A stretch of DNA of 64,000 nucleotides from positions 1 through 64,000 of IMG/VR virus record IMGVR_UViG_3300017971_004103, one strand, 5' to 3'. The stretch comes from a virus. The notes beneath the pieces are model-generated. The model was not told the origin of the DNA, did not search any database, and worked only from the letters and a program-made list of their open reading frames with translations. Position numbers and translations under genes: made by a program. Shown one piece after another: positions 12,404-33,954 of this stretch (its first letter is position 1; every line of letters starts with the position of its first letter).

Positions 12404-12949
12404 ATGCTCAAGCAGGATCGCTATGATAGTTTGATTCAATTCTATACTGAAAAGCACACTGAATTTGACTGGATGCTCATCAAGGCTGTGATCAGGCGGG
12501 AAAGCAGATTCAATCGTTATGCCGAAAGCCAGGTCGGTGCAAGGGGATTAATGCAGTTGATGTCTGGGACGGCAAAAGATATGGGCATGGTAAAGGATGA
12601 AGAAAGATTCGATGTGGAATGGTGCATAGATGCTGGGATTAGGTATCTATGGTTTTTATATGGCCGGTACCCTGAAATACCGGATGAGCAGGAAAGGCTT
12701 AAATTTGCCCTAGCCGCCTATAATGCTGGGCGTGGAAATATTAATAAGGCTCTTGAGATCGCTAGGGATAGAGATGGATTTCCTGCTTCATGCAAAAAAT
12801 GGAAAGCACTTGGCTCTCCCCCGGGCCGATGGCAGACATGGAAATATTCAAAGCAGTTCTTAAAAAAAGTAACAGGTGATTATTCAAAAGAAACTCTAGC
12901 CTACGTAGCGGCAATAGAAAAGTTTTATCGTAAGTATCGGGCAATATAA
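12404..12949 (+). CDS. lytic transglycosylase (SLT) endolysin
   Basis: RRESRFN...GARGLMQLM...ALAAYNAG; likely start at 12404 (GAGG SD). Confidence 0.92.
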   Translation: MLKQDRYDSLIQFYTEKHTEFDWMLIKAVIRRESRFNRYAESQVGARGLMQLMSGTAKDMGMVKDEERFDVEWCIDAGIRYLWFLYGRYPEIPDEQERLKFALAAYNAGRGNINKALEIARDRDGFPASCKKWKALGSPPGRWQTWKYSKQFLKKVTGDYSKETLAYVAAIEKFYRKYRAI

Positions 12950-13031
12950 GTTAATATGTAATTTTATATTATCACTTATTTGGCAAATTAAATAATAAAT
13001 ACCAACAAGGACAACGATTATCATGGCTAGA
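12896..13031 (+). repeat. direct repeat copy 2 (endolysin 3' end + TerS leader)
   Basis: Matches 10616-10783. Confidence 0.9.
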
Positions 13032-13475
13032 CCAAGAAAGAAATTTACAGAAAATGAAAAGAAATTAATAGTAGCCCTATACGGTGAGGGAAAAACGGAT
13101 GCCGAAATAGCTAAGTTATTGGATATACCGAGAAAAACATTTACGGACAGGCTAAAATATAATGATTTAACCGCCACTATAAAAAAAGCAAAAAAAACAC
13201 CCAATGAAATGGTTGAAGCATCTTTATTTAAGGTAGCAAATGGGTTTTTTTATGAAGAGGTGAAGGCATCACAACTTAAGGACGGAACCACTAGACAGAC
13301 CATAACCAGAAAGTATGTCTCTCCCAACGAAAGAGCATGTATGAACTGGCTATGTAATAGAGACCCCGATAGATGGAAACACATAATGAGCCTACAAATA
13401 GGTGGCGATACCGAGGGGGCACCGATAGATTTTAGAATAATCGATGCCACTAAAGGCAATGCCCTCAAGGATTAA
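13023..13475 (+). CDS. terS: terminase small subunit
   Basis: N-terminal HTH, VEASLFKVANG...ACMNWLCNRDPDRWK; overlaps TerL. Confidence 0.8.
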   Translation: MARPRKKFTENEKKLIVALYGEGKTDAEIAKLLDIPRKTFTDRLKYNDLTATIKKAKKTPNEMVEASLFKVANGFFYEEVKASQLKDGTTRQTITRKYVSPNERACMNWLCNRDPDRWKHIMSLQIGGDTEGAPIDFRIIDATKGNALKD

Positions 13476-17364: not shown

Positions 17365-18285
17365 ATGCCCTCAATTCTTAAGATAATGGAACAAATGGCC
17401 GGTGCCCATGATGAAGCGCTGGAAAAGATTGTTGCACCCGCAGAGAGGGACTTCCTCAAAATATGCAGCAATGCAGAACGCAGAATAGCATCTGAACTGA
17501 GAAGGCTTACCAAGAATTTGTCAATGTCTTCCGGGGAGCTTGATATTCAGCTAGATATTGCCAGAACAGAGGCAACCCTGTCAAATGTGATGCGACTCCA
17601 TAATGAGCACATAGTCAATGCTGGAGTAGACTGGGCGACTGAGTATTATCCCGAAATAGTTAATCAATCCATTGAATTAATGAATGAGTTCAAATCTATA
17701 ACCGGCATATCACTGGATACATTCACCGACATTGACAAGATGCAGATCAGAACGTCTTTGGAAAGCTGGAAGGGTTCCTTAATCCAGGCTGGTGATAGTT
17801 ACAAGCAATTTGCAAGCAAAACTATTACCGAACATATTATGGCCGGTGTTGGTACCAAGGCCGATCTTATTAATAAGTTAATGGATAGTGACGGGCTCCT
17901 GCCGACGTCGAGAATGACTCGCAAGACAAGGGCGGGTTGGCAGGCACGAAACGAATTAATAAGAATCAGCCGTGAGACCAATGCCATTAAAGATAGAGAT
18001 GAGAAGTTTTTTAGGATGGCAGGGCCAGTTGACTCACGGGCAAGCAAGTTGTGTTTGCGCCATGTTGGTAGGATTTTATCTAGGAAGGAATGGTTGAAAA
18101 TTAATCCCCGTACATTTAACGAGGGGTTGCATTTTTCGTGTAGACATAAATGGTATGCAATTAGAAAAGAGTGGCTTGATGAAGATGAACAACAATCCAT
18201 GAATGGGAATAAGAGAATTCTATATAGTAAAAAAGACAGGAAATTCATTCAAGATTCAGATGTGCCAAATAATTTTCTTAAATGA
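17365..18285 (+). CDS. head morphogenesis / minor capsid protein (Mu gpF / SPP1 gp7-like)
   Basis: GPVDSRASKLC...HFSCRHKW C-terminal motif; position after the portal. Confidence 0.75.
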   Translation: MPSILKIMEQMAGAHDEALEKIVAPAERDFLKICSNAERRIASELRRLTKNLSMSSGELDIQLDIARTEATLSNVMRLHNEHIVNAGVDWATEYYPEIVNQSIELMNEFKSITGISLDTFTDIDKMQIRTSLESWKGSLIQAGDSYKQFASKTITEHIMAGVGTKADLINKLMDSDGLLPTSRMTRKTRAGWQARNELIRISRETNAIKDRDEKFFRMAGPVDSRASKLCLRHVGRILSRKEWLKINPRTFNEGLHFSCRHKWYAIRKEWLDEDEQQSMNGNKRILYSKKDRKFIQDSDVPNNFLK

Positions 18286-18526: not shown

Positions 18527-18886
18527 ATGAAGAAAATTAAATCGTTAATTTTGGCAGTGGTAGGGATATTTTTGATGGTGTCCCTATGTGTTGCACTTCC
18601 TGGAATAAAGCAGTGGAAGGCCATATGGAATGCGAATACAGAATCAGATTTAGCAGGGTATAAACTTTACTATAGTTCTACAAGTGGAAGTTATACCGAT
18701 GCTAACAGCATAGACTGTGGCAACGTCACTGAATATAACTTAGATACCATTCCAAATGGTTCTTACCTGGTGCTTACTGCATATGATACCAGTGAGAATG
18801 AGGGGAATTTTTCGGGTGAAGTTTTTTTCGACAAGGACACGGTTGCTCCTGCAAGTCCTGGTGGACTGGCAATCGTGGAACAGTAA
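18527..18886 (+). CDS. fibronectin type III domain protein with signal peptide
   Basis: MKKIK + hydrophobic core; WNANTESDLAGYKLYY...TAYDTSENEG. Confidence 0.8.
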   Translation: MKKIKSLILAVVGIFLMVSLCVALPGIKQWKAIWNANTESDLAGYKLYYSSTSGSYTDANSIDCGNVTEYNLDTIPNGSYLVLTAYDTSENEGNFSGEVFFDKDTVAPASPGGLAIVEQ

Positions 18887-18960
18887 AATTTGAGTGGAAG
18901 AAAAGAAATTAAAAGAGCGGCATCTTAATGGGTGCCGCTCTTAATTTATGGGGACAAGGT

Positions 18961-19812
18961 ATGTTGTCGGTCATAATTCCGTCACGCACAGAAAGATTTT
19001 TAGATAATACAATAAGAGATGTTTTGGAAAAAGCCACTGGGAAAATAGAAGTGATACCAGTGCTTGATGGATATGAACCACCAGAACTCATTGAAGACGA
19101 AAGAGTAAAGTATTTAAGCCTTCCAAAATCCCGCAATACCCAAAAGAGACACGGCATTAATAAGGCAGTTTCTATTTGTAAGGGTGATTATGTGATGAGT
19201 CTTGATGCTCATTGCATGATGGATAAAGGATTTGATGAAAAACTAGCTGAGGCTCACCATCCCAATTGGGTACAAATCCCTCGCCGGAATAGATTGGATG
19301 CTGAAAACTGGTGTCTTCAGGATCAATGTGATGATCGTCCCCCGATTGATTATGAATATATTATGTTTGCTCCCCTAATTAAAGATCGCTCCATACACGG
19401 ATTCAAATGGGACAAAAGAACTTTAGATAGATGGGATATTCCCATTGATGATACCGTTGAATTTCAGGGTTCGTGCTGGTTTATGACCAAAGACTGGTAT
19501 CACAAAATGGGGTTTATGCAGGTCGAGGGTTATACTGGATGGGGGCAGGAGGCCGAGGAAATAAGTTTAACTACTTGGAAAAACGGCGGTGAAGTCAAGA
19601 CAAACAAAACCACTTGGTACGCACATTTGCATAAGGGTAAAAAGTACGGGCGCATGTATTGGATGAGTCGGGAAGAGTGCCGTCGCAGTTATGCTTATTC
19701 ATTTCAGAAATGGCTGATAGAAGAAAAGGAATTTTTTATTAATTTAATTGAGAGATTTTCCCCCCTCCCACAATGGCCGGAAAACTGGAAAGAAAAGCTG
19801 TGGAAACTTTAA
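18961..19812 (+). CDS. GT-A glycosyltransferase, polypeptide GalNAc-transferase-like
   Basis: LSVIIPSR, SLDAHC (DxH), FQGSCWFM, GWGQEAEEISLTTWKNGG, WYAHLHK. Confidence 0.8.
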   Translation: MLSVIIPSRTERFLDNTIRDVLEKATGKIEVIPVLDGYEPPELIEDERVKYLSLPKSRNTQKRHGINKAVSICKGDYVMSLDAHCMMDKGFDEKLAEAHHPNWVQIPRRNRLDAENWCLQDQCDDRPPIDYEYIMFAPLIKDRSIHGFKWDKRTLDRWDIPIDDTVEFQGSCWFMTKDWYHKMGFMQVEGYTGWGQEAEEISLTTWKNGGEVKTNKTTWYAHLHKGKKYGRMYWMSREECRRSYAYSFQKWLIEEKEFFINLIERFSPLPQWPENWKEKLWKL

Positions 19813-20411
19813 AATATATTGTTGACAAATATAAAATAGATCTTTCACAACCATCGCCCTTTCATCTTCCCATTGGACGATTTAAGGATGTTCCAAGGCT
19901 ATTTAAAGAGCTTGGCTTTAAGGTTGGGGCTGAGGTGGGAACTTATCAGGGTGAATATGCAAGGTATCTTTTAAGGTATTGTCCTGGGTTGAAACTTTAC
20001 GGCATTGATATGTGGAAATCATATAAGGGATATAAGGATTTCGGCGCGAATGATCTAATTGATTCCCATCAAATAGCAAAAGAAAGGGTTAAGGGGTATG
20101 ACTGCGAACTAATCCAGGGATGGAGCAATGAAGTTGTCAAACGAGTTTTAGATGAGAGCTTAGACTTTGTTTTTATAGACGGCAATCACGCATATGAATA
20201 TGTAGTTGAAGATATTGCTAATTGGTCAAAAAAGGTTAGAAGTGGCGGGATTGTCTACGGTCATGACTTTGATGATTATACAAATAGAAGAAGATGGAAG
20301 CAGATGCACGTTATCCAGGCAGTTGAAGGGTGGGTGAAGTCGTACAAAATCCATCCGTGGTTTGTGCTGACCAATAACAAAAATAAAACATGGATGTATG
20401 TCAAGCCATAG
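19773..20411 (+). CDS. class I SAM methyltransferase (Methyltransf_24-like)
   Basis: GAEVGTYQG...LDFVFIDGNHAYEYV..DI...GGIVYGHDF. Confidence 0.88.
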   Translation: MAGKLERKAVETLKYIVDKYKIDLSQPSPFHLPIGRFKDVPRLFKELGFKVGAEVGTYQGEYARYLLRYCPGLKLYGIDMWKSYKGYKDFGANDLIDSHQIAKERVKGYDCELIQGWSNEVVKRVLDESLDFVFIDGNHAYEYVVEDIANWSKKVRSGGIVYGHDFDDYTNRRRWKQMHVIQAVEGWVKSYKIHPWFVLTNNKNKTWMYVKP

Positions 20412-21054
20412 CCTTACCATACTGTACTACACGGCAAATAGAGAAGATGAAAATTTTGCGAGTAGGATTCGAGAAAACATCCTTAGTGTTTCTGGTGGTT
20501 TACCAATTGTAAGTGTCTCACAAAAACCCCTGTGTTTTGGTAAAAATATTTGTGTGGGGATGCATGATAATTGTTATCACAATGCTGCCCGCCAGGTGCA
20601 AATCGGACTAAGGGCTATAGATACTCCCTATGTAATTGCGGCAAATTCAGACACTCTTTATCCACCGGAATATTTTCAATTCAAAATATCTGGAAGGGGG
20701 TGGGTTTATAGATACAACAATGTCTGGGTTCACTATACTCAATTTAAGGGACAGCCGAAATTTTGGTTTAAGGGCGTTAGTCATTGTGCTCAAGTAGTAG
20801 ATAGAGAATTATGGCTGAAGCGAATTGATAGGGTTATGGATAAACTCCCTAAATGGAGAATTGATAAAATCGATAGAATTTCCAGCATACACTTTAAACA
20901 CTATGAACATATGGCCGCAGACAATCCAGTAATAACATTTAAAACAAGAACTGGGGTCAAATCTACAACTGCCGTGAAAAGAGGTCACTTACCGAAATAT
21001 AGTTTGCCCTATTGGGGATCGGCAAAAGCATTGAGAGAAAAAATGTTTCAATGA
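20398..21054 (+). CDS. putative GT-A glycosyltransferase
   Basis: ILYYTAN...LPIVSVSQKP...NSDTLYPPEYF; homologous to the C-terminal half of 21730..23328. Confidence 0.6.
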   Translation: MSSHSLTILYYTANREDENFASRIRENILSVSGGLPIVSVSQKPLCFGKNICVGMHDNCYHNAARQVQIGLRAIDTPYVIAANSDTLYPPEYFQFKISGRGWVYRYNNVWVHYTQFKGQPKFWFKGVSHCAQVVDRELWLKRIDRVMDKLPKWRIDKIDRISSIHFKHYEHMAADNPVITFKTRTGVKSTTAVKRGHLPKYSLPYWGSAKALREKMFQ

Positions 21055-21743
21055 AATTATCAATCATAATCTCCGTATATCAAAGCCATGAAATTGTCCG
21101 AAGGCAGCTATTACATTTTAAAAAGATAAAATTACCATTTGAATTAATCATCGTTGATGATGGAAGCAGCCCCCCAATTGAGGGGGCTTTTTGTTGCACA
21201 AATAATAAGCTGGCATGGACACAGGGATTGGGCAGGAACCTCGGGGCATCTAAGGCAAGCGGTGAATATCTTTTTATGACAGATATTGACCACATCATAT
21301 CGAGAGAAGCTATAGAAGATGCCCTCAATTTTACCGGCAACAAGATGATTTTCAGAAGGCAGATTAGGGTTTTAGATGAAGATGGGAATATTAGGCAAGA
21401 CAAAGAAACCCTAAAAGACTGGGGTTATGAAAAAGATAATTTAGATGCGAGCGTTCACGGCAATACTTTTGTAATCAAAAAAGAAGTTTTTGAAAAGCTC
21501 GGTGGTTATGCAAGAAGCACTTGTACAATTGGTTATCACCCAGCCCGTCGCAAGGGAGATGATTGTTACTTTAACTCTAAGTGGAATCGTACTTATCGAG
21601 GAATTAAGCCAGTAGTTGGTTCTGATATCTATATGTTTCCCATAGGTAGATTTCATAAGAATGGTGATTTAAACCCCAAAGGACTCTTTCACAATTTAAG
21701 TCAAACTAAGCAGGAGAAATTTTATAAGAATGCCACAGCTTAG
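21051..21743 (+). CDS. GT2 glycosyltransferase
   Basis: LSIIISVY, IIVDDGS, GRNLGA, MTDIDH. Confidence 0.88.
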   Translation: MKLSIIISVYQSHEIVRRQLLHFKKIKLPFELIIVDDGSSPPIEGAFCCTNNKLAWTQGLGRNLGASKASGEYLFMTDIDHIISREAIEDALNFTGNKMIFRRQIRVLDEDGNIRQDKETLKDWGYEKDNLDASVHGNTFVIKKEVFEKLGGYARSTCTIGYHPARRKGDDCYFNSKWNRTYRGIKPVVGSDIYMFPIGRFHKNGDLNPKGLFHNLSQTKQEKFYKNATA

Positions 21744-23328
21744 TGTCATCATCCCATCGAGAAATGAGATGTTTCTCAATAACACCATTGAAGACATCTT
21801 AAAAAACAGTGAAGCAGATACTGAGATTATTGTGTGTTTAGATGGTCAATGGCCGATTGATCCGATTAAACAACATCCAAAAGTAAAGATAATATTCTTC
21901 CCTGAAAGTATCGGTCAGAGAGCCGCGACAAACAGGGGCGCTCGGATATCAGATGCAAAATATCTCATGAAACTAGATGCCCACTGTTCTTTTGCTAAAG
22001 GATTTGATCGAGTTCTTTTAGAAGATATTCAAGATGATTGGACTATAGTCCCTCTCATGCGAAACCTCCATGCCTTTGATTGGGTATGTAAAAATGGACA
22101 CCGTAAATATCAAGGGCCGACTCCGGGGAAATGTGGAGAATGTGGCGAGCCCATGAAGCGGGAAATATTGTGGCGAGCAAAACCAAGTCCCAAAAGTACC
22201 TCCTATCGTTTTGACCGTACCCTGCATTTTCAATACTGGGGAGAATACAAAAAGCATCAAAAGGGTGATCTTGTAGAGACAATGTCATTACAGGGGTCAT
22301 GCTTTATGATGCGACGTGATCGTTATTTTGATTTAAATATCTGTGATGAGACTTGGGGATCATGGGGCAATCAAGGAACGGAAGTTGCGGTAAAATCATG
22401 GTTATCGGGTGGTAGAGTAATAGTTGATAAGCGTACTTGGTATGCTCATATGTTTAGGACGCAGGGTGGGGACTTCGGATTTCCATATCCACAATCAGGC
22501 AAAGCAGTTGAACGTGCAAGACAATGTTCCAGGGATTTATTTTTAAATGATAAATGGGATAAAGCCGTTCATCCCTTTAGCTGGCTGATTAATAAATTTA
22601 AGCCACCAGATTGGGAAGATGTGTGGCAAAAAGAACCCGACAAAAAGCCGACATCCCCCACCAAAGGAATTGTCTACTATACGGATAATCGGCTTAACAT
22701 GAAGTTGGCCAAATTATGCCGGAACTACATCAAGAAATCTAATCTTCCCATCACATCGGTAACCTTAAAGTCAACAGGCTTCGGACATAATATTGTTGTT
22801 AAGTCTGAGCCTAGCTATAAGACCATGTTCAAACAGATATTGACCGGTCTTAAAGAAGCCAAAGAGGACATTATATTTTTATGCGAGCACGATGTCTTAT
22901 ATCATCCGTCTCATTTTGAGTTTACACCAGAGGAAGAAAACACATTTTATTATAACGGATATTATTGGATGGTTCGGCTAAAAGACGGCTTTGCTATTAA
23001 CTATGATGTCAGCCCGCTATCTGGATTAGTCGCCTACAGAGAACCACTCATTACTCATTTCGAAGAGCGTGTAGCACTAATTGAAAAACAGGGATTCGGT
23101 TATTATATGGGATTTGAACCGATGACTCATAAGCGTATCAAGTGGGAGAATTGGTATGACTTTAAAATATTTAAACCCCAATATCCTAATGTTGATTTAG
23201 CACACGAAGGAAATTTAACTAACAAAAGATGGACGCAAAAGAAGTTTATACGAAAACCAAAGTTTTGGAATGAAGGAAGTATTAATAATATAGAAGGCTG
23301 GCCTAATTTGCCAAAATTATTAAGCTAA
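21730..23328 (+). CDS. two-domain glycosyltransferase (ppGalNAc-T-like N-terminal domain + second GT-A domain)
   Basis: KLDAHC, LQGSCFMMRRDRYFDLNICDE.WGSWGNQGTEVAVKSWLSGG, WYAHMFR; C-terminal domain GIVYYTDN...CEHDVLYHPSHF. Confidence 0.8.
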   Translation: MPQLSVIIPSRNEMFLNNTIEDILKNSEADTEIIVCLDGQWPIDPIKQHPKVKIIFFPESIGQRAATNRGARISDAKYLMKLDAHCSFAKGFDRVLLEDIQDDWTIVPLMRNLHAFDWVCKNGHRKYQGPTPGKCGECGEPMKREILWRAKPSPKSTSYRFDRTLHFQYWGEYKKHQKGDLVETMSLQGSCFMMRRDRYFDLNICDETWGSWGNQGTEVAVKSWLSGGRVIVDKRTWYAHMFRTQGGDFGFPYPQSGKAVERARQCSRDLFLNDKWDKAVHPFSWLINKFKPPDWEDVWQKEPDKKPTSPTKGIVYYTDNRLNMKLAKLCRNYIKKSNLPITSVTLKSTGFGHNIVVKSEPSYKTMFKQILTGLKEAKEDIIFLCEHDVLYHPSHFEFTPEEENTFYYNGYYWMVRLKDGFAINYDVSPLSGLVAYREPLITHFEERVALIEKQGFGYYMGFEPMTHKRIKWENWYDFKIFKPQYPNVDLAHEGNLTNKRWTQKKFIRKPKFWNEGSINNIEGWPNLPKLLS

Positions 23329-23358
23329 CCCCCTTACGACTATAAGGGGGTTTTTATT
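23328..23358 (+). terminator. rho-independent terminator
   Basis: ACCCCCTTA-cgacta-TAAGGGGGT followed by a T tract. Confidence 0.75.
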
Positions 23359-23368
23359 AGGAATAAAG

Positions 23369-26300
23369 ATGACTCGATATACCAATATAGTAATTATGAT
23401 TTTCTTTTTTTTGTTGATTAGCTGTAGTAATGGCTGGTGTCTTATCAGTAAGACATTAAAATCATCTGGGGGAGATTATGCCTCTTGGGAAGAAATGATA
23501 ACCGATCTTACGACGACCTATAATGCTTTATCAGACGATCTTACCGTTACCGTATCCCCCGCAAAATATGTAGAAGATACATATGCACCCACCTGTACGA
23601 TTGATCTAAACGGACATACTGTAATTATAAAGGCCATTGATGGATATGGGCCCCATTCGTCTGATGGAAAAACAGGGCCGCAATTTGATTTACAACTCCC
23701 AGACTCTGCTCATCATTTTTTATTTCTTGATGCAAAAGATACCGGACAATTTATCGTTGAGGGACTTACATTTGATGTAGATGAATCTTCTTCTAGTCCA
23801 GCCAATGTTTTTTATTTAGCCAATGATGCTGCATCTGTAGTAACGATTAGAAATTGTGTATTTAAGGGGCAACAAGATGAGGATGCGATCTATTCCTCTA
23901 ATATAAACACTACTATCCGCATATACAACAATTTTTTCTATAATTTCTATACCGCCATTACTACCCTGTTTCAAGCAACTGATAGTTTTATTGGGAATAA
24001 TACTATTTATGGATGTGCTCAATATGGAATCAGCCTTTCCAGCAAAGACATTTTAGCCATGAATAATCTGGTTTACAATAATGGAACGGATTTTTTATTA
24101 CCTGGAAGTGCTACTGGATATAATAATCTGTGTAGTGACACTACCTGTGAAGATGGTGATTTTAGTACTGGCAACGGTAATCAACCATCTAAAACAGTAT
24201 CTTTTACCTCTACATCTGATGATGAGTATTTCCTTGCATCTGATGAGGTGATAGCAATTGATGGTGGGACTGTAACTGCGTACGATGATCTAGTCGCTCA
24301 TTATAGATTTGAAAGAGGATATCTAACAGAAGATAGTAGTGATAATAGTAACACTATAACGGCAGTAAGTGATCCGGCATCAATTATGTCTGATTACAGG
24401 GAAGGTAACGGAGCAATAGATTATGATAGTGATGATTATCATGTAAGGCCTGATGGGGATTTAAGCGATGATTTTCCTGGCAAACAAGATTCAGCCAATA
24501 CAGACCTAACAGTATCGCTCTGGATAAGACCCACTGGAAGTGGTAGTAATAATCGAGACCTTATTTCGATTGCTGCTGCCGGTACTGAGAACGGTAAAAT
24601 ATGGGCTGTGCGTATTGATGCAAGTGATAAAATATCATTTTTAAAAGGTTACGACAATGGTGCATCATGGGAAACAACAACTTATAGTACTGCCCTAACA
24701 GAAGGAAGTTCTGCCCCCTGGTATAGAATAGATGTTACCTACGATGAATCAGGGGCAATAGGAGCAGCAAAGGGCGTTAGAATTAGGGTGTGGGATGATA
24801 CGGCTAAAGCATGGTTAAGTAGTGATACAACAGCTACTCATGGCAATGCTATGGATACCAGCACAACGTATACACCTGACTTTGTAATTAATGCCCTTAA
24901 ATATAATGGAACTTATTATCCATATGATTGTGAAATGGATGGCATTAGAATTTACAATAGAGCATTAACTCCTGACGAATTAGATGAAGCATGGACATTA
25001 AATCACGATGCCTTTAATAGACCAAGGGATACATCTCCAGACATCGGTGCTTATGAATATATTGCGCCAGTTGATTACTATGTTAGTGCAGACAATGGAG
25101 ATAACAGTAATAATGGAACAAGCACCTCTACTGAATGGGAAGATTTTACTAATGTCGATAGTATGATATTCAATCCAGGTGATACGCTTAATCTAGCAAT
25201 GGATGATGAATGGAATGATACTTTATGGATTACTGCCGTTGGTTCTACTGTAAATGGAAATGGGGTTACAGTAACAAAATATATTGATGATACAAGCACC
25301 ACAAATCCTATAATACATGGTACATCCGGTAGTTATGGTATCAATTATAAAACCTCATCTCATGTAATAACTGAAAATATAATAGCAGAAAGTTGTAGTT
25401 CTCATGGTATTTATGCTGCGAGTGCAAATGATTTAACTTTTACAAATGTAGAATCAAATCGCAATGGTGGAGAAGGTGTAGATACAAGTATTTACAGTGG
25501 ATTTACTTTTTATGCTATCGATAATCTTAATCTTACAAACTGTACTGGTAATTGGAATCATGGACATGGCTTTTATCTAGGATATACAAATGATGGAACT
25601 TGTAATATTGCTGGATCAACATTTAATTATAATGGTCTTATACATGGAAATAAACAAGGATTTGGCATTCTAACGAGTTGTTACGCAGATAGTGGATATG
25701 ATGATATCTTAAATGTAACTAACACAATTGCTAATTATAATGGATATATTGGTATCGGGCCTGGTACAAACAGTATTATAGATAATTGTACGGCTAATTA
25801 TAATGGAGATGGTTGGGGAACACAGGGAGTAAAGATATTCTCTGGTACATTAACTGGGAATTTAGGTGATCTCGATACTGTTACACAAGAAAATACTAAT
25901 GCTGCAGGAATAGTTCATCACTGCAATTCATCTTATTTTATAAAAGATGGACATAGTATTTGGTTATCACTATGGGAAGAATCTGGCACTTTTAATGGTA
26001 CAGATAAAATTGTAAAAGATGTAAGTAATTATTGGGAACCTACTACTGTAATTGATTATGAGCCTGATTCTGACTGGTCTGGGGGGGGGATGGATTTAAG
26101 AAATAGTGATAATACAATAGTTAGGTATTGTTTAGCAATTGGCAATCTTACAGTTTATCATGTCGGAATAGATGGCTATGGCATTAATATAGATGATGAA
26201 ACTGATGGGGCAAAGGTTTATTATAGTATAAGTACGTTTAATCGTGGCGCCGGTTTCAAGATACATAATTCCGGTAAAGTAGCAATGAATTATTTATATC

Positions 26301-27151
26301 ACTGTCTTTCATATGGAAATAGTGTATCTGTAGCTACTGCTGCTGGTATACATATTGCAGATTTAGAGGGCGGGGATGTTACTATTAAAAATTGCATATC
26401 TCTATTAGATACAAATTGGGCTTTCAGGGTAGCTGCTGCTAGTTTAGACACAGAAACACTGGTACTAGATTATAATAATTATTACATGGGGGCAGGAGAG
26501 CAAGATTTGGTTAGGTGGGGAACAACTGAATATACCTCATTAGAATTTGAAGATTATCAAACCGATACTGGGCAGGATGTGAATTCAATAGCTACTGATC
26601 CCTCATTGGTTGATCCCGCCAATGGTGATTATAGACTAGCATTTGATTCACCTTGCATTGATACTGGAGTTGACTTAACGGGAAGTACAGAAGCCACAGA
26701 CTATCATGGAAACTCTGTTCCCGTTGATGGTGATCAGGCTGGTGGAGGGCAATCTGATATAGGTCATTATGAATATTCAATTGGATGGAAATGGGGAGCT
26801 GCATCAGAGGAGGCGGGATATCATGATGATGGATTAACCGAAAGGGGATGGACCGAGGGAACTGGTGCTATATCTGGTGATAGCCAAACAGGAATACTTG
26901 AATTAGATGATGATGAATATTTATTGGGGCCAGTGATAAATACCGGAAGTACAGCTACAAAGCATTTGTCTATTTCCAAGGGCAGCGAATCTGGAACCGG
27001 CACTTTATGCTGGCGTGGTCAATCAACTAAATTTGAACAAACTGATACCGATCCTAGTTGGGAAGTATATAGCAAAAGTGAGAATAAGGATTGGCAATAT
27101 GTCCAAATAGCTGTTGACAACGACGATGACAACTGTGCGTCTCTACCATAG
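23369..27151 (+). CDS. 1260-aa acidic parallel beta-helix + LamG/ConA-like lectin protein with signal-peptide-like N-terminus (fibre/adhesin)
   Basis: PbH1-like repeats (IYNNFFYN, GNNTIYG), LamG motifs (LVAHYRFE, TVSLWIRP, MDGIRIYNRALT), and two DIG.YEY motifs. Confidence 0.75.
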   Translation: MTRYTNIVIMIFFFLLISCSNGWCLISKTLKSSGGDYASWEEMITDLTTTYNALSDDLTVTVSPAKYVEDTYAPTCTIDLNGHTVIIKAIDGYGPHSSDGKTGPQFDLQLPDSAHHFLFLDAKDTGQFIVEGLTFDVDESSSSPANVFYLANDAASVVTIRNCVFKGQQDEDAIYSSNINTTIRIYNNFFYNFYTAITTLFQATDSFIGNNTIYGCAQYGISLSSKDILAMNNLVYNNGTDFLLPGSATGYNNLCSDTTCEDGDFSTGNGNQPSKTVSFTSTSDDEYFLASDEVIAIDGGTVTAYDDLVAHYRFERGYLTEDSSDNSNTITAVSDPASIMSDYREGNGAIDYDSDDYHVRPDGDLSDDFPGKQDSANTDLTVSLWIRPTGSGSNNRDLISIAAAGTENGKIWAVRIDASDKISFLKGYDNGASWETTTYSTALTEGSSAPWYRIDVTYDESGAIGAAKGVRIRVWDDTAKAWLSSDTTATHGNAMDTSTTYTPDFVINALKYNGTYYPYDCEMDGIRIYNRALTPDELDEAWTLNHDAFNRPRDTSPDIGAYEYIAPVDYYVSADNGDNSNNGTSTSTEWEDFTNVDSMIFNPGDTLNLAMDDEWNDTLWITAVGSTVNGNGVTVTKYIDDTSTTNPIIHGTSGSYGINYKTSSHVITENIIAESCSSHGIYAASANDLTFTNVESNRNGGEGVDTSIYSGFTFYAIDNLNLTNCTGNWNHGHGFYLGYTNDGTCNIAGSTFNYNGLIHGNKQGFGILTSCYADSGYDDILNVTNTIANYNGYIGIGPGTNSIIDNCTANYNGDGWGTQGVKIFSGTLTGNLGDLDTVTQENTNAAGIVHHCNSSYFIKDGHSIWLSLWEESGTFNGTDKIVKDVSNYWEPTTVIDYEPDSDWSGGGMDLRNSDNTIVRYCLAIGNLTVYHVGIDGYGINIDDETDGAKVYYSISTFNRGAGFKIHNSGKVAMNYLYHCLSYGNSVSVATAAGIHIADLEGGDVTIKNCISLLDTNWAFRVAAASLDTETLVLDYNNYYMGAGEQDLVRWGTTEYTSLEFEDYQTDTGQDVNSIATDPSLVDPANGDYRLAFDSPCIDTGVDLTGSTEATDYHGNSVPVDGDQAGGGQSDIGHYEYSIGWKWGAASEEAGYHDDGLTERGWTEGTGAISGDSQTGILELDDDEYLLGPVINTGSTATKHLSISKGSESGTGTLCWRGQSTKFEQTDTDPSWEVYSKSENKDWQYVQIAVDNDDDNCASLP

Positions 27152-27159
27152 GTAAAAAT

Positions 27160-27333
27160 ATGAATAAGCTTGAATATCTTAAAAAGAAATTAAGAATAAT
27201 AAAAATCCTTTTAATAATGATTCCTATAATTGGAGGATTAGTTTATTCATTTATTATTAAAGAGTATTTTGAAACAAAACGAGAAATATATAAAATACAG
27301 GGCATTCGGCTAGTTGTGGCCCCGGCGAAGTAG
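27160..27333 (+). CDS. 57-aa single-TM protein (below the ORF-track cutoff)
   Basis: MNKLEYLKKKLRIIKILLIMIPIIGGLVYSFII... Confidence 0.45.
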   Translation: MNKLEYLKKKLRIIKILLIMIPIIGGLVYSFIIKEYFETKREIYKIQGIRLVVAPAK

Positions 27334-27345
27334 GTGAAACAGTAA

Positions 27346-30300
27346 TTGGTGCAGTGGACAATTGACGATATAAAATTAGGACAGGGGCCATCTGATAGTC
27401 CATCTGTTTCACCATCAGTAAGTCCATCTGCTTCAGTATCACCGTCAGCCAGTGAATCGCCTAGTGTATCCCCCAGTGCGAGCGTTTCTCCTAGCGCGAG
27501 TGAATCGCCGAGCATGAGTCCTTCGGCATCTATTAGCCCATCGGCCAGCGAAAGCCCAAGCATATCACCGTCGGCCAGTGAATCTCCGTCAGAATCACCA
27601 AGCGTTTCACCGAGTATTTCTCCTTCGGCCTCTGAATCGCCGAGCGTAAGCCCGTCAGCCTCAGAAAGCCCATCTGTTTCGCCGTCCGCTTCTGTGAGTC
27701 CAAGTGCTTCTGAGTCGCCAAGTATATCTCCGAGTACTTCTGAATCACCATCGGAATCACCTTCAGTTAGCCCTTCCACCTCCATTAGTCCTAGTGTATC
27801 ACCCTCTGCATCTGTCAGTCCATCTGAAAATTTATTTGATTACAATCAATCATTTGATGAATTAAATGATGGCGCCATAGATGGTCAGGATGGTTGGACG
27901 GAAGACCCCTTCGATAATGGTGCAATTGTTCAAACCAGTGTGGTATTTCATGGTGCAAAGGCACTATCTTTTCCTATTGGCGAAGCAGATGATGAGATTA
28001 TAGCTTATAGGGATTTTGCCGAGTATTTTACTGCTGGTACATTATATTTTGCCATACGTTTTTCTGATTTTTCTAATTGGGAAACAACTGAATATAGTAC
28101 TATAGCACCCCTATATAATGATATCGGAAGCCTTATTTCACTTAGACCCGATGGTAATGACTTAAAAATAAGGGTTGAAGAAACTGGATATGGAACAAGC
28201 CATAGCAACTTAATTGAAACTATTTCTAATATTCAAGATAATACTTGGTATGCAATTGGTATAGAATGGGATATTTCACGCGGTACTAAAGGACAGGCAA
28301 GAGTACAGGTAAATTCGGGAGAATGGAGCGATTGGGTAGATTATTATGCAGAAGATTTACAGGGATTTAATTGCATATATTTGCATTGTGCTACTGGTGC
28401 TGGTAGAGGTTGCACTTTTTATTTTGATGAGATAAATTCTGAGGAAATAGAATCTAGTAGTATTTCACCCTCGACCAGTGAATCGCCCAGCGTATCTCCT
28501 AGTAGTAGTGAAAGTCCATCGGTATCGCCCAGCACGAGCATATCTCCCAGTGAGAGCCCCTCCGAGAGTCCGAGTTTGTCGCCGTCTTCATCGGAATCTC
28601 CCTCTGTTAGTCCAAGTGCTTCGGTATCACCTTCAAGTTCAGAATCACCATCAGTGAGTCCGTCTACTTCGACCTCACCATCAGAATCACCTAGTATCAG
28701 TCCGAGCAGTTCAGCTAGCCCATCGGTATCGCCCAGTGCATCTGTTAGCCCTTCGGCGAGTGAATCTCCTAGCGTTTCGCCCTCGACAAGTGAGAGTCCC
28801 TCAATAAGTCCGTCGGCTTCTATCAGTCCGAGTATTTCACCGAGTAGTAGCGAATCACCCAGTATTTCACCATCTGCCTCCATTTCGCCATCTACCTCGG
28901 AAAGTCCCTCAGTATCGCCGTCGAGTTCGGAGAGCCCCTCAGCTTCTCCTAGTGCTAGTATTAGTCCTAGCACCTCGGAGTCGCCGAGTTTAAGCCCTAG
29001 CACAAGTGAGTCTCCATCGGTATCACCTAGTACATCTGAATCACCTAGTGAGTCACCGAGTAGTTCAGAGTCACCGTCAGTTAGTCCCTCGGCCAGCGTG
29101 AGCCCATCAAGTAGCGAGTCACCATCGACCAGTCCCTCAAGTTCCGAGTCACCCTCAATCAGTCCTAGCACTAGCGAGTCGCCATCAATATCACCGTCAG
29201 CAAGTGTATCACCGAGTGAGAGTTCATCAGAATCTTCTTCTCTTAGCCCCAGCGCTTCGGTTAGTCCGTCAATATCCCCAAGTAGTTCCGAATCGCCGTC
29301 ATTGTCACCAAGTGCCAGTGTAAGCCCATCGGTAGGGTCGGCATCATTATCACCAAGTTCCAGTATATCGCCCTCGGTATCACCGAGTGCCTCTTTATCA
29401 CCATCATCTTCAATTAGTCCGTCAAGCTCCGAGAGCCCGTCGGTGTCTCCATCGAGTTCAGAGAGTCCGAGTGTCAGTCCATCTTCAAGCGAGAGCCCCA
29501 GCGTCAGTCCCAGTGCATCAATTTCACCGAGTATTTCGCCGTCAGCTTCGGTTTCTCCATCATCCTCAGAGTCGCCCTCCGTGAGTTCGTCGAGTTCCGA
29601 AAGTCCTAGTTTGAGCCCTTCATCATCGGAATCACCCTCGGTCAGTCCATCAGCGAGTGTCAGTCCCTCAAGTTCGATCAGTCCGTCAGTCTCTCCCTCG
29701 GCGTCAGTTAGTCCATCAACCAGTGAGAGCCCGTCGGTATCGCCAAGCGCAAGTGAGTCACCCAGTAGTAGTGAGTCACTCTCGGTGAGTCCATCGGCCT
29801 CTATTTCTCCGAGCAGCTCAGAGAGCCCCAGTGTCTCTCCCTCAGCATCAGAATCGCCAAGCCCGTCTGAGGGTTCTTCTTCTGAATCACCGTCTGAAAG
29901 TCCAAGCGTATCGCCGAGTGCTAGTATCAGTCCGAGTACATCAGAATCTCCATCTGTCAGTCCCTCGGCCAGCGTGAGCCCTTCAACCTCAATATCACCC
30001 TCGGTATCGCCAAGCGCCTCCGAGAGTCCCTCAGTCTCACCCTCGGTCAGTATGAGTCCCTCAGTCTCACCGAGCGCAAGTGAGTCGCCTTCAATATCAC
30101 CGTCAAGTTCGGAAAGTCCATCGTTGAGCCCCAGTGCTTCCCTATCTCCATCGGCTAGTGAAAGCCCATCAGTCTCTCCGTCGGCATCCGTTAGTCCAAG
30201 TGCTTCCGTAAGCCCATCATGTGAGCCAGGGGAATATGAAAACCTGACAATCTACGACAAGGTAGATGAAGGAAATGATATAACTGTTGAATGCACTAAA

Positions 30301-31305
30301 TCAACCTTCATTAATCTGGATAATTTAGATGAGGCTCATTTATCAAGGGATTTTGGCATAGACTATTTTCAAAATTTTAGTATTGATTTTGAAGCTCAGA
30401 TCACTTCCGTATCAAATGGTTCCGTTGTCGGGTTAATTGGAGTTACAAATTTACCGGAATCGATAATGCCATGTGATCATGGGATTTTTGTTGATGTTAA
30501 TGATGATCGCAAAGTTTATTTGATTGATCGAGACAGTGGATCGGGCATAACCTCTGGTGCTCTTACATTAAGCACAACTTATTATTTCACGTTTAGGCGA
30601 GATGAAAGTACAGCTTATGTAGATATTTACACGGATTCAGACAGAAACAATCTATTTCAAACCATATCGCTTGAATGTGAAGCCATTAACTGGCGATATT
30701 TACAGGTAACTACATCACAAGAATGGGGATCAACTCCTGATAGGCTATGTTCTGGATGGGTAGATCATGTATTAATTAATTATGCCTATAGTCCCTCATC
30801 TTCGGAAAGTCCTTCAGTAAGTCCGAGTGCGAGTTTATCGCCGTCAGCATCAGCCTCTCCCTCGGTGAGTCCTTCGGCATCTATTAGCCCATCGGTCTCC
30901 CCGAGTGCGAGCGTTTCTCCGTCGAGTTCGGAGTCGCTGTCGGTCTCACCTTCAGCCTCAGAAAGTCCGAGTGAGAGTCCTTCGGCCTCAGAATCACCCA
31001 GCGTGAGTCCTAGCGCCTCAGAGAGTCCGAGCCTTTCTCCCTCTGCGAGCATAAGCCCGTCGAGTTCCGAAAGTCCCTCGATAAGTCCCAGTGCATCAAT
31101 TTCACCGAGTACCTCTGAGAGCCCGAGCATGTCGCCGAGCGCATCAGAATCACCTAGCGTTAGTCCATCTTCTAGTTTAAGTCCATCGATTTCACCGTCG
31201 GTTAGTCCCTCGGCTTCGGTTAGCCCCAGCGTATCACCGAGTGCATATGGTGAATCAAGATATAGCTTCAAAAAACACATCAACAAGAGCTTTGAGGTAA
31301 AGTAA
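27346..31305 (+). CDS. 1319-aa mucin-like Ser/Pro-repeat protein with two embedded beta-sandwich (lectin-like) domains
   Basis: Three SPS-x-SPS-x-S-x tracts (about 27388-27826, 28456-30220, 30791-31245) separated by two globular domains of about 200 aa. Confidence 0.85.
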   Translation: MVQWTIDDIKLGQGPSDSPSVSPSVSPSASVSPSASESPSVSPSASVSPSASESPSMSPSASISPSASESPSISPSASESPSESPSVSPSISPSASESPSVSPSASESPSVSPSASVSPSASESPSISPSTSESPSESPSVSPSTSISPSVSPSASVSPSENLFDYNQSFDELNDGAIDGQDGWTEDPFDNGAIVQTSVVFHGAKALSFPIGEADDEIIAYRDFAEYFTAGTLYFAIRFSDFSNWETTEYSTIAPLYNDIGSLISLRPDGNDLKIRVEETGYGTSHSNLIETISNIQDNTWYAIGIEWDISRGTKGQARVQVNSGEWSDWVDYYAEDLQGFNCIYLHCATGAGRGCTFYFDEINSEEIESSSISPSTSESPSVSPSSSESPSVSPSTSISPSESPSESPSLSPSSSESPSVSPSASVSPSSSESPSVSPSTSTSPSESPSISPSSSASPSVSPSASVSPSASESPSVSPSTSESPSISPSASISPSISPSSSESPSISPSASISPSTSESPSVSPSSSESPSASPSASISPSTSESPSLSPSTSESPSVSPSTSESPSESPSSSESPSVSPSASVSPSSSESPSTSPSSSESPSISPSTSESPSISPSASVSPSESSSESSSLSPSASVSPSISPSSSESPSLSPSASVSPSVGSASLSPSSSISPSVSPSASLSPSSSISPSSSESPSVSPSSSESPSVSPSSSESPSVSPSASISPSISPSASVSPSSSESPSVSSSSSESPSLSPSSSESPSVSPSASVSPSSSISPSVSPSASVSPSTSESPSVSPSASESPSSSESLSVSPSASISPSSSESPSVSPSASESPSPSEGSSSESPSESPSVSPSASISPSTSESPSVSPSASVSPSTSISPSVSPSASESPSVSPSVSMSPSVSPSASESPSISPSSSESPSLSPSASLSPSASESPSVSPSASVSPSASVSPSCEPGEYENLTIYDKVDEGNDITVECTKSTFINLDNLDEAHLSRDFGIDYFQNFSIDFEAQITSVSNGSVVGLIGVTNLPESIMPCDHGIFVDVNDDRKVYLIDRDSGSGITSGALTLSTTYYFTFRRDESTAYVDIYTDSDRNNLFQTISLECEAINWRYLQVTTSQEWGSTPDRLCSGWVDHVLINYAYSPSSSESPSVSPSASLSPSASASPSVSPSASISPSVSPSASVSPSSSESLSVSPSASESPSESPSASESPSVSPSASESPSLSPSASISPSSSESPSISPSASISPSTSESPSMSPSASESPSVSPSSSLSPSISPSVSPSASVSPSVSPSAYGESRYSFKKHINKSFEVK

Positions 31306-31631
31306 TGGATACAGATTTTGAAAAATATACATACGAACAATTTCCCATTGAGTGTGATTTTGCCAATGTTTTGGATACTGGAGAAACATTGGTAGTCGCA
31401 AATTGTGAAATAAAGATTTATGATGAAGATGGTAAAGACGTAACTACAGCCATGTATGTAGATGGTTCAATAAGTGTTGCGGATGGTAGCAAAACAAGTT
31501 CAAAATTAAAGGCAAAGATCAAGGCTGGAACTGCAGATGCTAAATATACGGTTAAGTTTAAGGCTACAAGTAGTGCTTCAAATAAATTTCAATTAGATAA
31601 AACTCTTTACGTAAAGTACGAAAATACCTAA
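31305..31631 (+). CDS. putative fibre adaptor protein
   Basis: K.TYE.FPIECDFANVLDTGETL...AGTADAKYTVKF pattern resembles phage fibre adaptors; translationally coupled (TAATG) to the Ser/Pro gene. Confidence 0.5.
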   Translation: MDTDFEKYTYEQFPIECDFANVLDTGETLVVANCEIKIYDEDGKDVTTAMYVDGSISVADGSKTSSKLKAKIKAGTADAKYTVKFKATSSASNKFQLDKTLYVKYENT

Positions 31632-32025: not shown

Positions 32026-32775
32026 ATGACTGATGATAACAAACAAACAGTAACACAAGACGTAGAACCAGGAATAGTGCAGGCTCCAAATTCAACCCAA
32101 GTCCCAGCACCGGCACCATCAATGAGGCCGAATCTTTCACCAGCTGACCCCGGACATCCAGAATACGATCCCCTTAAGGACGAAAAGGTAAAAAGCTATA
32201 GCAATAAATTGTTTACTCAGATTGCGGAGCGAGACAACGAGCTTAAAAGCCTTAAGGATATCCTTGAAAACACAAACGAAAAGTTAGCTTTATACGAGAA
32301 AGAAAAGAAAGAAAAAGAGGACAAGGATAAGACCGAATTGCAGTTAGCTAGTGAGAGGTTGTCTGCTCTTGAGAAGGAAAAGGCCGATTTGGCAAATCAA
32401 TTGGAAAATACAAAAGCGAGTAGTAGTAAGATTAAAGTAAATCTTGAGGCACGCTTGCTGCTCATGGAGGAACTTAGCCGGGCGGGCATTAAAACCAATT
32501 CGGCAGAACGCAAGGGATTGCAAGCCGAGCTTGAGGACAGGCTCAGCAAAAAGAAAGAGAATGAAGATTCATCTGATATTGCAAAAGCAATCGTTGTTGA
32601 TTTTGGCAAAGACAAACAAAGTGCCTTTACACCGCCGGCCGAACCAAAGCCGGCAAAACCACAGAAAATAGAGCCGACTGATCTTCAAAAGAAGATAGTC
32701 GAATTATCAAGGAATTATGAAAAGAACAAGGATGAAATACAGGCAATCCTTAAGCAAATAGAAGCAAAAAAATAA
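32026..32775 (+). CDS. capsid scaffolding protein
   Basis: Charged coiled coil (KEKEDKDKTELQLA), Pro-rich ends, directly before the MCP. Confidence 0.75.
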   Translation: MTDDNKQTVTQDVEPGIVQAPNSTQVPAPAPSMRPNLSPADPGHPEYDPLKDEKVKSYSNKLFTQIAERDNELKSLKDILENTNEKLALYEKEKKEKEDKDKTELQLASERLSALEKEKADLANQLENTKASSSKIKVNLEARLLLMEELSRAGIKTNSAERKGLQAELEDRLSKKKENEDSSDIAKAIVVDFGKDKQSAFTPPAEPKPAKPQKIEPTDLQKKIVELSRNYEKNKDEIQAILKQIEAKK

Positions 32776-32910: not shown

Positions 32911-33954
32911 ATGGCGAATGATGCTGTAATGAATGTTATTCAACCGTCGGATTGGATGAGTGGAACCATTCCAACTGTATATTCCAGAAGGATATATCAG
33001 GAGGCAATGAATTCTATGCTCTGGTCTAAATTTATGGGTGAAGAGGGTGCTCTTATGCCTATAATCAAAAAGACCGATCTCGTGGCCGAGGCCGGAGGTA
33101 CGATCAATATAATCAGAACCCTGAATCTTACCGGGGATGCACAAACCGGGAGATTAAAGGGTAATGAGGAAAAGATTAATACCCAGGTATTGACTACCAG
33201 CCCTAGCTTAAAACGGCATGGTGTTGCATGGGAAGAGCTCTCGGACAAAAGAGTATCTTTTAGTACGAGAGAGCGTGCAGCCATGCTGCTCCAGAGACGT
33301 TGGGCAGAGCAATTTGACGACGATATCTGGGCTGCAATGGTTGGTACGGGTACTGGTTTTAGCGGAAATGCCCCGACTGTAGTTTGGGGCGGAGATGCAA
33401 CTGCCCTATCCGACATTGATTCGACCGATACTTTCGATATAGACGATATCGATAAGATGAGGGAAAAGCTGGAAGAGAATAAAACTGTTCCCGTTGGTGG
33501 AGCAGAGGGACAATATTGTCTTTTTATTCACACCAGGCAAGCCTACTATCTTGGTATCACCGATGCATGGAGAACCTATCAAAAGGACGCTGATGTAAGG
33601 GGTATCGAGAACTGGCTGTTCTCTGGTGGCAAACCCTACGGTGGAATCAAGGCTTTTGGTTATTGGAATGGTGCTGCTATTTTCAAAACCAATCAAGCCC
33701 CGACCGTGACCTCTACCAGCTCTCCCTCTTGCACTGTTGCAAAGGGTGTAATGGTAGGTTGTGAGGCATTAGCTCATGCTATCGAATCTTACACAATTGA
33801 TGGTGAGATCGTAGAGGGTGTGAAATATGCTGAGCAAATTGATGATTATGGTAATGAAAAGGGCATTGGAGCTGGCGCAAGTTATGAGGATAAAATCCTA
33901 ACTTCCGAAAACCTGGTTCAGATTTGGAGCGCTGCAAACAATCCCAATGCTTAA
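32911..33954 (+). CDS. major capsid protein (N4-gp56/DUF4043-like)
   Basis: 347 aa; GGTINI...LKGNEEKI, YCLFIHTRQAYYL, DDYGNEKGIG; strong GGAGGTGA SD; terminator downstream. Confidence 0.85.
   Translation: MANDAVMNVIQPSDWMSGTIPTVYSRRIYQEAMNSMLWSKFMGEEGALMPIIKKTDLVAEAGGTINIIRTLNLTGDAQTGRLKGNEEKINTQVLTTSPSLKRHGVAWEELSDKRVSFSTRERAAMLLQRRWAEQFDDDIWAAMVGTGTGFSGNAPTVVWGGDATALSDIDSTDTFDIDDIDKMREKLEENKTVPVGGAEGQYCLFIHTRQAYYLGITDAWRTYQKDADVRGIENWLFSGGKPYGGIKAFGYWNGAAIFKTNQAPTVTSTSSPSCTVAKGVMVGCEALAHAIESYTIDGEIVEGVKYAEQIDDYGNEKGIGAGASYEDKILTSENLVQIWSAANNPNA

Follow-up and report, generated by a model that had tools for sequence, protein, structure and literature searches.

A phage cassette of GT27-like glycosyltransferases beside an alternating-serine protein: a candidate protein O-glycosylation system with a counterpart in Patescibacteria

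Mucin-type O-glycosylation, which is initiated by the polypeptide N-acetylgalactosaminyltransferases (ppGalNAc-Ts, family GT27), has been treated as a eukaryotic invention. In GT27 enzymes an Asp-x-His pair and a distal His bind Mn2+. Ser-X repeat glycoproteins are known from Gram-positive adhesins, and the A064R protein of chlorovirus PBCV-1 is a multidomain enzyme with two glycosyltransferase (GT) domains and a methyltransferase that takes part in capsid glycosylation. Phage virion glycosylation has been described in actinobacteriophages (Che8 and relatives; PMC10527164, as cited in PMC11256854). Here we analysed a 64,000-nucleotide stretch of viral DNA (the window), the first 64 kb of the 76,763-bp IMG/VR virus record IMGVR_UViG_3300017971_004103, whose completeness was put at 91% by CheckV. 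The window carries an island of glycosyltransferase and methyltransferase genes next to a gene for a protein with long tracts of alternating serine (Table 1). In our judgement the island is probably a cytoplasmic protein O-glycosylation cassette with the adjoining alternating-serine protein as its substrate, the product likely being displayed on the particle or used at the cell surface.

Two enzymes of the island, GT-A no. 1 and GT-A no. 2, carry the evidence for this assignment. GT-A no. 1 contains, in this order, the motifs SLDAHCM, QGSCWFM, WGQEAEEISLTTWKNGG and WYAHLHK, and GT-A no. 2 contains KLDAHCS, QGSCFMM, WGNQGTEVAVKSWLSGG and WYAHMFR; the two proteins are 31% identical over ~300 residues (E 4e-37). 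As a single query against the PDB, GT-A no. 1 retrieved ppGalNAc-Ts (best 5e-6) and one marginal GT2 enzyme (E 0.23), and GT-A no. 2 retrieved almost exclusively ppGalNAc-Ts, the best being ppGalNAc-T2 at 1.6e-6. In Pfam, GT-A no. 1 matched the GT2 family at 1.2e-12. Its own family comprises 809 representative clusters at E <= 1e-3 among 1.8 billion representatives, with identities of 65-85% between close members. In an alignment of 59 family sequences, D93, H95, H233, W128 and T28 were invariant. Residues D93, H95 and H233 align with the DxH pair and the GHxFR histidine of GalNAc-T2, T10 and T12 (GHVFR/GHIYR), and H233 in YAHLHK, like the His of AHMFR in GT-A no. 2, takes the place of the third metal ligand of GT27.

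The profile made from the 59 sequences gave ppGalNAc-Ts as the first 13 matches in the PDB (E 8e-19 to 8e-15), aligned over positions 4-255, that is, over the entire catalytic domain, whereas the best-matching stretch of the chondroitin polymerase K4CP and of generic GT2 enzymes covered the N-terminal nucleotide-binding part only (positions 3-100 in the case of GT2). An AlphaFold2 model of GT-A no. 1, with a mean predicted local distance difference test (pLDDT) score of 95.8, showed a GT-A fold, and all of the 50 top Foldseek matches of this model were GT27 enzymes. A comparison with 48,161 chains using VIA-align placed GalNAc-T1 first (Z 25.7 over 266 residues, 3.1 A), with Toxoplasma GalNAc-T3 at Z 24.1; K4CP came next after GT27 at Z 18.3, and the usual GT2 folds scored 18 or below. 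Judged by profile and predicted structure, both enzymes are thus GT27-like, closer to this family than to any other GT-A family and by a clear margin. The translation of GT-A no. 1 probably begins at the ATG at 18961 and not at 18928, since homologue alignments begin at residue 12 of the longer open reading frame (ORF) and since a 9-bp GC-rich hairpin (AGAGCGGCA...TGCCGCTCT, 18913-18942) spans the upstream ATG. A T-rich stretch follows the hairpin, which could be a terminator or attenuator between the cassette and the upstream gene for a 119-aa protein.

Three further genes lie between or overlap these two. The Methyltransf_24 product gave weak PDB matches to O-methyltransferase-type proteins (6.5e-4), and its gene adjoins GT-A no. 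1 in nearly all related loci, with up to six copies in genomes of the Candidate Phyla Radiation (CPR). The PHROG label of this gene, DNA methyltransferase, is probably a misnomer; the island transferases, the serine protein and its beta-helix neighbour had no PHROG match at all. The product of the gene at 20398 is related to residues 301-532 of GT-A no. 2, its C-terminal 232 residues (BLASTP E 2e-11), and a joint alignment of the two contains an invariant Asp within an (E/S)xD motif. The C-terminal domain of GT-A no. 2 was modelled from 31 sequences (pLDDT 93.4) with a GT-A, or nucleotide-diphospho-sugar transferase, fold and no beta-trefoil; many GT-A enzymes and nucleotidyltransferases matched it at Z ~12-13, none standing out, and a PDB sequence search with this domain gave no match. 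The generic GT2 gene likely starts at the ATG at 21051, overlapping the preceding stop codon; its product matched TarS and TarP weakly in the PDB, and it is conserved in many related loci. Counting the GT2 enzyme together with GT-A no. 1, both domains of GT-A no. 2 and the 20398 product, the island is predicted to encode five GT-A domains and one methyltransferase. GT-A no. 2 also has a Cys-rich insertion (residues ~119-145, CKNGH...CGECGEP) which is absent from GT-A no. 1 and may be a zinc ribbon.

The candidate acceptor is the last large product of the island. Its gene starts with TTG, 9 nt downstream of an AGGTGA motif, and the protein contains 509 Ser, 177 Pro and 49 Thr; it is the sole such protein in the 76.7-kb genome. 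Three SPSx tracts (residues 11-165, 361-963 and 1142-1308) amount to 925 residues with Ser at alternate positions and Pro at every fourth position. Animal GT27 enzymes favour Pro at +3 and -1, and of the 477 tract serines 167 have Pro at +3 and 168 at -1. The DNA of the gene shows little repetition, with no exact repeat longer than 30 nt in 3.96 kb and with Ser encoded by all six of its codons, which argues that the tracts are kept by selection on the protein and are not the outcome of recent DNA slippage. The tracts are separated by two globular domains of ~190 residues each (166-360 and 964-1141), for which neither PHROG nor PDB sequence searches gave a match, nor did Pfam give anything credible up to E 5; similarity of the two to each other was undetectable. 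No signal peptide was found, and the C-terminus (...SPSAYGESRYSFKKHINKSFEVK) contains no LPXTG.

The sequence-only reading of this DNA had proposed two GT-A enzymes with motifs in the GT27 order, the start at 18961, a 1319-aa protein of SPS repeats, and two more GT genes with a methyltransferase. Each of these was confirmed by the results above, and the comparison of GT27 with generic GT2 enzymes, which it had suggested as a check, came out in favour of GT27 by both profile and fold.

The pairing of such enzymes with serine repeats was then considered in other viruses. A scan of IMG/VR with the close-family alignment identified 216 viral contigs, 80 of which were fetched. A locus was regarded as complete if the enzyme was flanked by 4 kb or more on the downstream side and 1.5 kb or more on the upstream side, and a serine-repeat ORF was found in 36 of 36 viral loci with such flanks. 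Regardless of flank length, it was visible in the fetched DNA of 65 out of 85 enzyme-carrying viral loci. In 40 loci no more than 4 kb lies between the last GT27-like gene and the start of the repeat ORF downstream of it, and in 34 a small serine-tailed ORF ends just upstream of the first. In one phage (L012) the small serine-tailed ORF lies directly 3' of the major head protein gene, a position which is the usual place of a head decoration gene. The gene order is kept as GT-A no. 1, methyltransferase (with or without genes like that at 20398 and GT2 genes) and GT-A no. 2, and the gene after GT-A no. 2 typically encodes a variable globular head with hundreds of residues of SPSx or SxSx. The heads vary between phages, LamG domains being joined to the serine stalk as its head in related ones; the tract and its place beside the enzymes stay. 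The cassette order is retained even in related phages whose terminase, portal and capsid have no similarity to those of the window at E 1e-5.

Searches that began from the repeats agreed with this picture. Anchored on SPS peptides, a scan matched 411 stretches, three of which passed tblastn confirmation (E <= 1e-3), and the enzyme was found in all three. A degenerate (SPSx)3 DNA pattern, which has no occurrence in the window, gave 80 loci; the enzyme was present in 3/3 loci with long tracts, 0/11 with short tracts and 0/66 without tracts. As this pattern mostly matched unrelated DNA in the viral collection, these loci serve as a rough control. The association of the enzymes with serine repeats is more than chance, because it recurs in every viral locus with enough flank, and it is widespread, being found on at least 216 viral contigs. 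The co-occurrence with Ser-rich neighbours that the sequence-only reading had proposed to look for was therefore found; the combination of GT27-like enzymes with a mucin-like protein, of which it knew no example in phages, was not met with in a search of 8 million papers and preprints either, where neither GT27-like enzymes nor serine-repeat acceptors turned up for phages or CPR bacteria, but it is not special to this phage, given the other viral contigs and the Patescibacteria described below. The kinship of the enzymes, the metal triad, the five-domain make-up and the recurrent linkage to serine repeats in phages and Patescibacteria are matters of observation.

As to mechanism, the two GT27-like domains (that of GT-A no. 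1 and the N-terminal one of GT-A no. 2) would act in the cytoplasm on the unfolded SPSx tracts, placing the first sugar on serine hydroxyls. A cytoplasmic and soluble state would follow for enzymes that have no lectin domain, signal anchor or stem. Three further GT-A domains, those of the 20398 gene, the GT2 enzyme and the C-terminal part of GT-A no. 2, could extend the glycan, and the Methyltransf_24 enzyme may cap it by O-methylation. The expected product is a mucin-like stalk, built as a bottle brush from up to 925 residues and bearing two lectin-sized globular domains, which might serve for reach, adhesion or shielding, most likely on the particle or else at the cell surface. Dense O-glycans stiffen mucin domains to ~0.25 nm per residue, and at this value 925 residues could span ~200 nm. 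Sugar transfer to serine, the nature of the sugar, the sequence of the steps, the target of methylation and the location on the virion are inferences. The sugar operon further downstream could be the source of donors.

A number of points weigh against this proposal. Animal GT27 enzymes prefer Thr, which is much rarer than Ser in this protein (49 against 509). The Gal/GalNAc-T motif can be aligned in both enzymes and is diverged in both, with E208 nearly invariant, and the match of GT-A no. 1 to Glyco_transf_7C (1.6e-3, 18.5 bits) stays below the cut-off of 23. GT-A no. 1 stops after the catalytic domain (283-294 aa), with no ricin-type lectin domain, and inspection by eye revealed no N-terminal hydrophobic segment in GT-A no. 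1 or no. 2, so that neither should have a membrane anchor. No recognisable virion-attachment domain was found in the serine protein, and the beta-helix/LamG protein, whose gene separates GT-A no. 2 from the serine gene, looks like a secreted lipoprotein, its N-terminus (MTRYTNIVIMIFFFLLISC) resembling a lipoprotein signal by eye. The sequence-only reading had regarded the 108-aa gene as a fibre adaptor coupled to the serine gene. The coupling holds, since its ATG overlaps the serine gene stop (TAATG) with a GAGG motif upstream; the adaptor likeness is weak (PF23148 Gp77 at 1.5e-5, 25.9 bits, under the cut-off of 27), and the gene is not conserved beside the serine proteins of other loci. The co-occurrence counts ignore the shared ancestry of the loci. 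Lastly, the cassette is found in cellular, non-phage settings, so that the cell and not the particle could be where the phage copy acts.

The cellular scan covered one genome per GTDB species and yielded 22 loci, all in metagenome-assembled genomes. About two-thirds were labelled Patescibacteria/CPR (Collierbacteria, Paceibacterota, Zambryskibacteria, Saccharibacteria, Parcubacteria), and the other labels include Pseudomonadales, Gammaproteobacteria, Methanosarcinales and Pacearchaeota. The family is patchy, with five of 301 sampled genomes of the phylum positive at E 1e-30. The cassettes are often expanded, with up to three paralogues of GT-A no. 1 and as many as six methyltransferases. Next after the cassette, four Patescibacteria chromosomes encode serine-repeat proteins of 907, at least 2,662, 1,263 and 3,985 aa, and no signal peptide was found in the Patescibacteria serine-repeat proteins. 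The largest is a single ORF of 3,985 codons in a Paceibacterota genome (L234, 2759-14713), in which ~2,500 residues have alternating serine. TatC lies immediately upstream of the cassette in two distant Patescibacteria genomes (L230, 7927-8700; L212, 6906-7664). Prophages were considered as the origin of the Patescibacteria loci, and this is spoken against by the absence of Terminase_6N, TerL_ATPase and HK97 capsid matches (the families searched) in five such cellular genomes and of PHROG matches among the genes after the serine protein. Because the system is common to ultra-small bacteria and phages, it is suggested that this phage infects Patescibacteria.

These cellular loci argue for an alternative in which the chemistry is the same and the place of action differs, namely that the cassette and the serine protein are auxiliary (moron) genes for remodelling the host surface. 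During infection the phage would copy a glycosylated serine fibre of the host and thereby change how the ultra-small host attaches to its partner cell, or else prevent superinfection. The surroundings of the cassette on contigs of 134-455 kb are cellular: genes for FtsH, RecG, an M48 peptidase and TatC lie upstream of it. The giant serine proteins are followed by cohesin, dockerin and bacterial Ig-domain proteins (L231, 11932-16782; L233, 5142-11670) and in one genome then by ribonucleotide reductase; the run hints at a surface structure assembled by cohesin-dockerin binding. The lack of terminase and HK97 capsid matches in the five genomes, and the lipoprotein-like signal of the beta-helix/LamG neighbour, point the same way, and the ConA-like lectin and nucleotide-sugar genes of Patescibacteriota phages have been interpreted in terms of host adhesion (PMC12911398). 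In this phage, however, the island lies within the head module, between the portal region and the scaffold gene, on the same strand and with overlapping genes, and the serine protein has no signal peptide. In related phages the gene that directly follows that of the major head protein encodes a protein with a serine tail, and the heads of the serine proteins differ among phages as those of receptor-binding proteins do. We consider action on the host surface unlikely on balance. Even so, the virion fibre, which is favoured by the head-module position, the coupled adaptor-like gene and the head-adjacent serine-tailed proteins elsewhere, is not far ahead of it, given the cellular cohesin/dockerin version, the lipoprotein-like neighbour and the published host-adhesion interpretation.

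It is also conceivable, but quite improbable, that the enzymes make a free or primer-bound polysaccharide, GT-A no. 2 being a bifunctional polymerase of the chondroitin or heparosan synthase kind and the serine tracts acting as linkers or, at most, as proteoglycan-like primers. In sequence and fold, GT27 is followed as the best match by K4CP and heparosan synthase 2, which are GT-A polymerases with two domains; both also rank high among the fold matches of the C-terminal domain of GT-A no. 2. The phage also has a large nucleotide-sugar operon downstream. Against this, GT27 exceeds K4CP by ~7 Z units with a match over the whole domain, scanning the island genes against Pfam and PHROG revealed no flippase, polymerase, lipid-carrier transferase or export families, and linkers alone would leave the serine-repeat gene after the enzymes in all complete viral loci unexplained. 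Equally improbable is a mere inherited synteny, in which the transferases modify capsid, tail, DNA or host wall polymers and the tracts are unglycosylated spacers: the loci counted are not phylogenetically independent and the phage is rich in other glycosyltransferases and in possible targets, yet the linkage outlasts a complete turnover of backbone genes and transfer between viruses and cells, the heads of the serine protein are swapped while tract and position stay, and the closest relatives of the enzymes act on just such Ser/Pro-rich peptides.

If O-glycosylation of the serine tracts is accepted as the probable function, a broader and more doubtful interpretation may be offered. Patescibacteria and their phages might possess a true prokaryotic counterpart of mucin-type O-glycosylation, in which soluble sisters of the eukaryotic GT27 initiators densely glycosylate and then methyl-cap SPSx stalks of hundreds to thousands of residues. 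Such stalks would form the long fibres, for adhesion or spacing, of ultra-small episymbiotic cells, and the phages would use the same machinery to copy them on their particles. This is possible, though we hold it only tentatively; if true, it would bear on the origin of the eukaryotic mucin-initiating enzymes.

Table 1. Island genes and principal head genes of the window (positions in the window)
Feature	Position	Strand	Basis
Large terminase	13444-14784	+	Pfam and PHROG matches
Portal	14823-16295	+	Pfam and PHROG matches
GT-A no. 1, soluble single-domain GT27-like glycosyltransferase	18961..19812 (ORF 18928-19812)	+	Pfam, PDB, profile, model
Methyltransf_24, class I SAM-dependent methyltransferase, candidate sugar O-methyltransferase	19773..20411	+	Pfam 5.5e-18
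Stand-alone GT-A-fold domain, 218 aa, no Pfam family	20398..21054	+	Paralogue of GT-A no. 2 C-terminal domain
Generic GT2 glycosyltransferase	21012..21743	+	Pfam Glyco_tranf_2_2 1.2e-9, Glycos_transf_2 2.6e-9
GT-A no. 2, two-domain enzyme	21730..23328	+	N-terminal GT27-like 21730-22629; C-terminal divergent GT-A fold 22630-23328
Beta-helix/LamG (ConA-like) protein, 1,260 aa, right-handed beta-helix	23369..27151	+	Pfam Beta_helix 5e-16, Laminin_G_3 1.6e-8
57-aa ORF with one hydrophobic helix, between beta-helix and serine genes	27160..27333	+	Translation
Alternating-serine (SPSx) protein, 1,319 aa, candidate O-glycan acceptor	27346..31305	+	Composition, tracts
108-aa protein, weakly like a fibre-tail adaptor	31305..31631	+	Pfam PF23148 Gp77 (podophage GP4)
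Scaffold	32026-32775	+	PHROG 1793 at 2e-4
Major capsid protein	32911-33954	+	PHROG 334 at 2e-20; Pfam Phage_capsid_3

Nearly all genes of the window are on the plus strand, and the GC content is ~0.38. The stretch was found in two public DNA runs (sediment and seawater metagenomes), from which it may derive, with no RNA run among those listed. An ORF of 1,875 aa, the size of a tape-measure protein, at 65950-71574 of the genome points to a long-tailed phage. The sequence-only reading had placed the island between head-morphogenesis and scaffold genes; the scaffold gene could be assigned, and the head-morphogenesis label of 17365-18285 is weak (Phage_Mu_F, E 0.095). Several large late proteins have N-termini that resemble signal peptides or lipoprotein signals by eye, for example MTRYTNIVIMIFFFLLISC and MKHILILLSILLMCGVANA. 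The stretches concerned are at 23369-23440 and 18527-18600 of the window and at 11578-13542 and 14005-14544 of L235 (71578-73542 and 74005-74544 of the genome), and such N-termini are unusual where cytoplasmic assembly of the proteins is expected.

Other sugar-related genes are found downstream. A GT9 (heptosyltransferase-like) gene at 37723-38874 and a GT4 gene at 40130-41098 lie amid head and neck genes and are separated by a ParB-like gene (39624), and three tRNA genes (Ala-TGC, Met-CAT and Trp-CCA) stand side by side at 44401-44636. A large sugar operon occupies 45244-59174 and 61997-62962 of the window. It encodes two methyltransferases, a GT2 enzyme, a radical SAM enzyme, CgeB-like transferases and an epimerase; a nucleotidyltransferase, a GHMP kinase and a SIS isomerase, which make up a GDP-heptose-type pathway; and a B12-radical SAM enzyme, bringing the radical SAM enzymes to two, an amine-oxidase-like flavoprotein, a Gfo/Idh/MocA oxidoreductase, GT4 enzymes and a GDP-mannose 4,6-dehydratase.

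Should the enzymes glycosylate the tracts, they would be the first prokaryotic or viral relatives of the mucin initiators with a mucin-like substrate encoded beside them, and the origin of GT27 would become a testable question. The actinobacteriophages would then be joined by a second case of phage self-glycosylation, of a very different kind, and the system would also be a clue to the composition of the surface fibres of uncultured ultra-small bacteria. As the enzymes are predicted to be small, soluble and cytoplasmic, expression in E. coli for the production of defined mucin-like polymers may be possible.

Compared with the known systems, the island shares features with each and coincides with none. 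With the GT27 enzymes (GalNAc-T1, 8v9q/1xhb; GalNAc-T2, 2ffu; Toxoplasma GalNAc-T3, 8uhv) it has in common the GT-A domain with the Asp-x-His and distal His triad, the motif order of DxH, Gal/GalNAc-T-like motif and (G/A)Hx(F/H)(R/K), and a predicted acceptor that is a long Ser/Pro-rich mucin-like tract. It differs in that lectin domain, signal anchor and stem are missing, that identity is only 17-22%, that WGGEN is replaced by WGQEA or WGNQG, that the acceptor is almost pure Ser and not Thr-rich, and that one paralogue is fused to a second GT-A domain. In actinobacteriophages, too, phage-encoded glycosyltransferases act on the phage's own structural proteins inside the host, as is proposed here. 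Freeman et al. in 2023 reportedly observed the glycans on capsid and tail-tube subunits, and we know of no giant repeat acceptor, GT27-like enzyme or methyltransferase cassette in that work. PBCV-1 likewise encodes a cytoplasmic multidomain GT-A protein with a sugar methyltransferase and has methylated glycans on a virion protein, but it is a eukaryotic virus and its atypical glycans are N-linked to the major capsid protein. The serine-rich repeat adhesins (Fap1, GspB, SraP) resemble the present system in their hundreds of Ser-X dipeptide repeats, in globular binding regions set between repeat regions, and in cytoplasmic glycosylation by dedicated neighbouring genes with stepwise extension by several transferases, as is proposed for the island. 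Their initiators are the GT-B enzymes GtfA/GtfB of family GT4, whereas the tract-adjacent candidates here are GT27-like and all five island domains are GT-A; the GT4 genes of this phage lie elsewhere (40130, 56826, 61997) and have no link to the serine gene in other loci. Further differences are the Pro at every fourth position, a C-terminus in which no LPXTG was seen, the absence of accessory Sec (SecA2/SecY2) genes among the island genes scanned, and the setting in phages and Patescibacteria as opposed to Gram-positive bacteria. Taken together, the island is a candidate for protein O-glycosylation of serine-rich repeats with an unusual enzyme family and unusual hosts.

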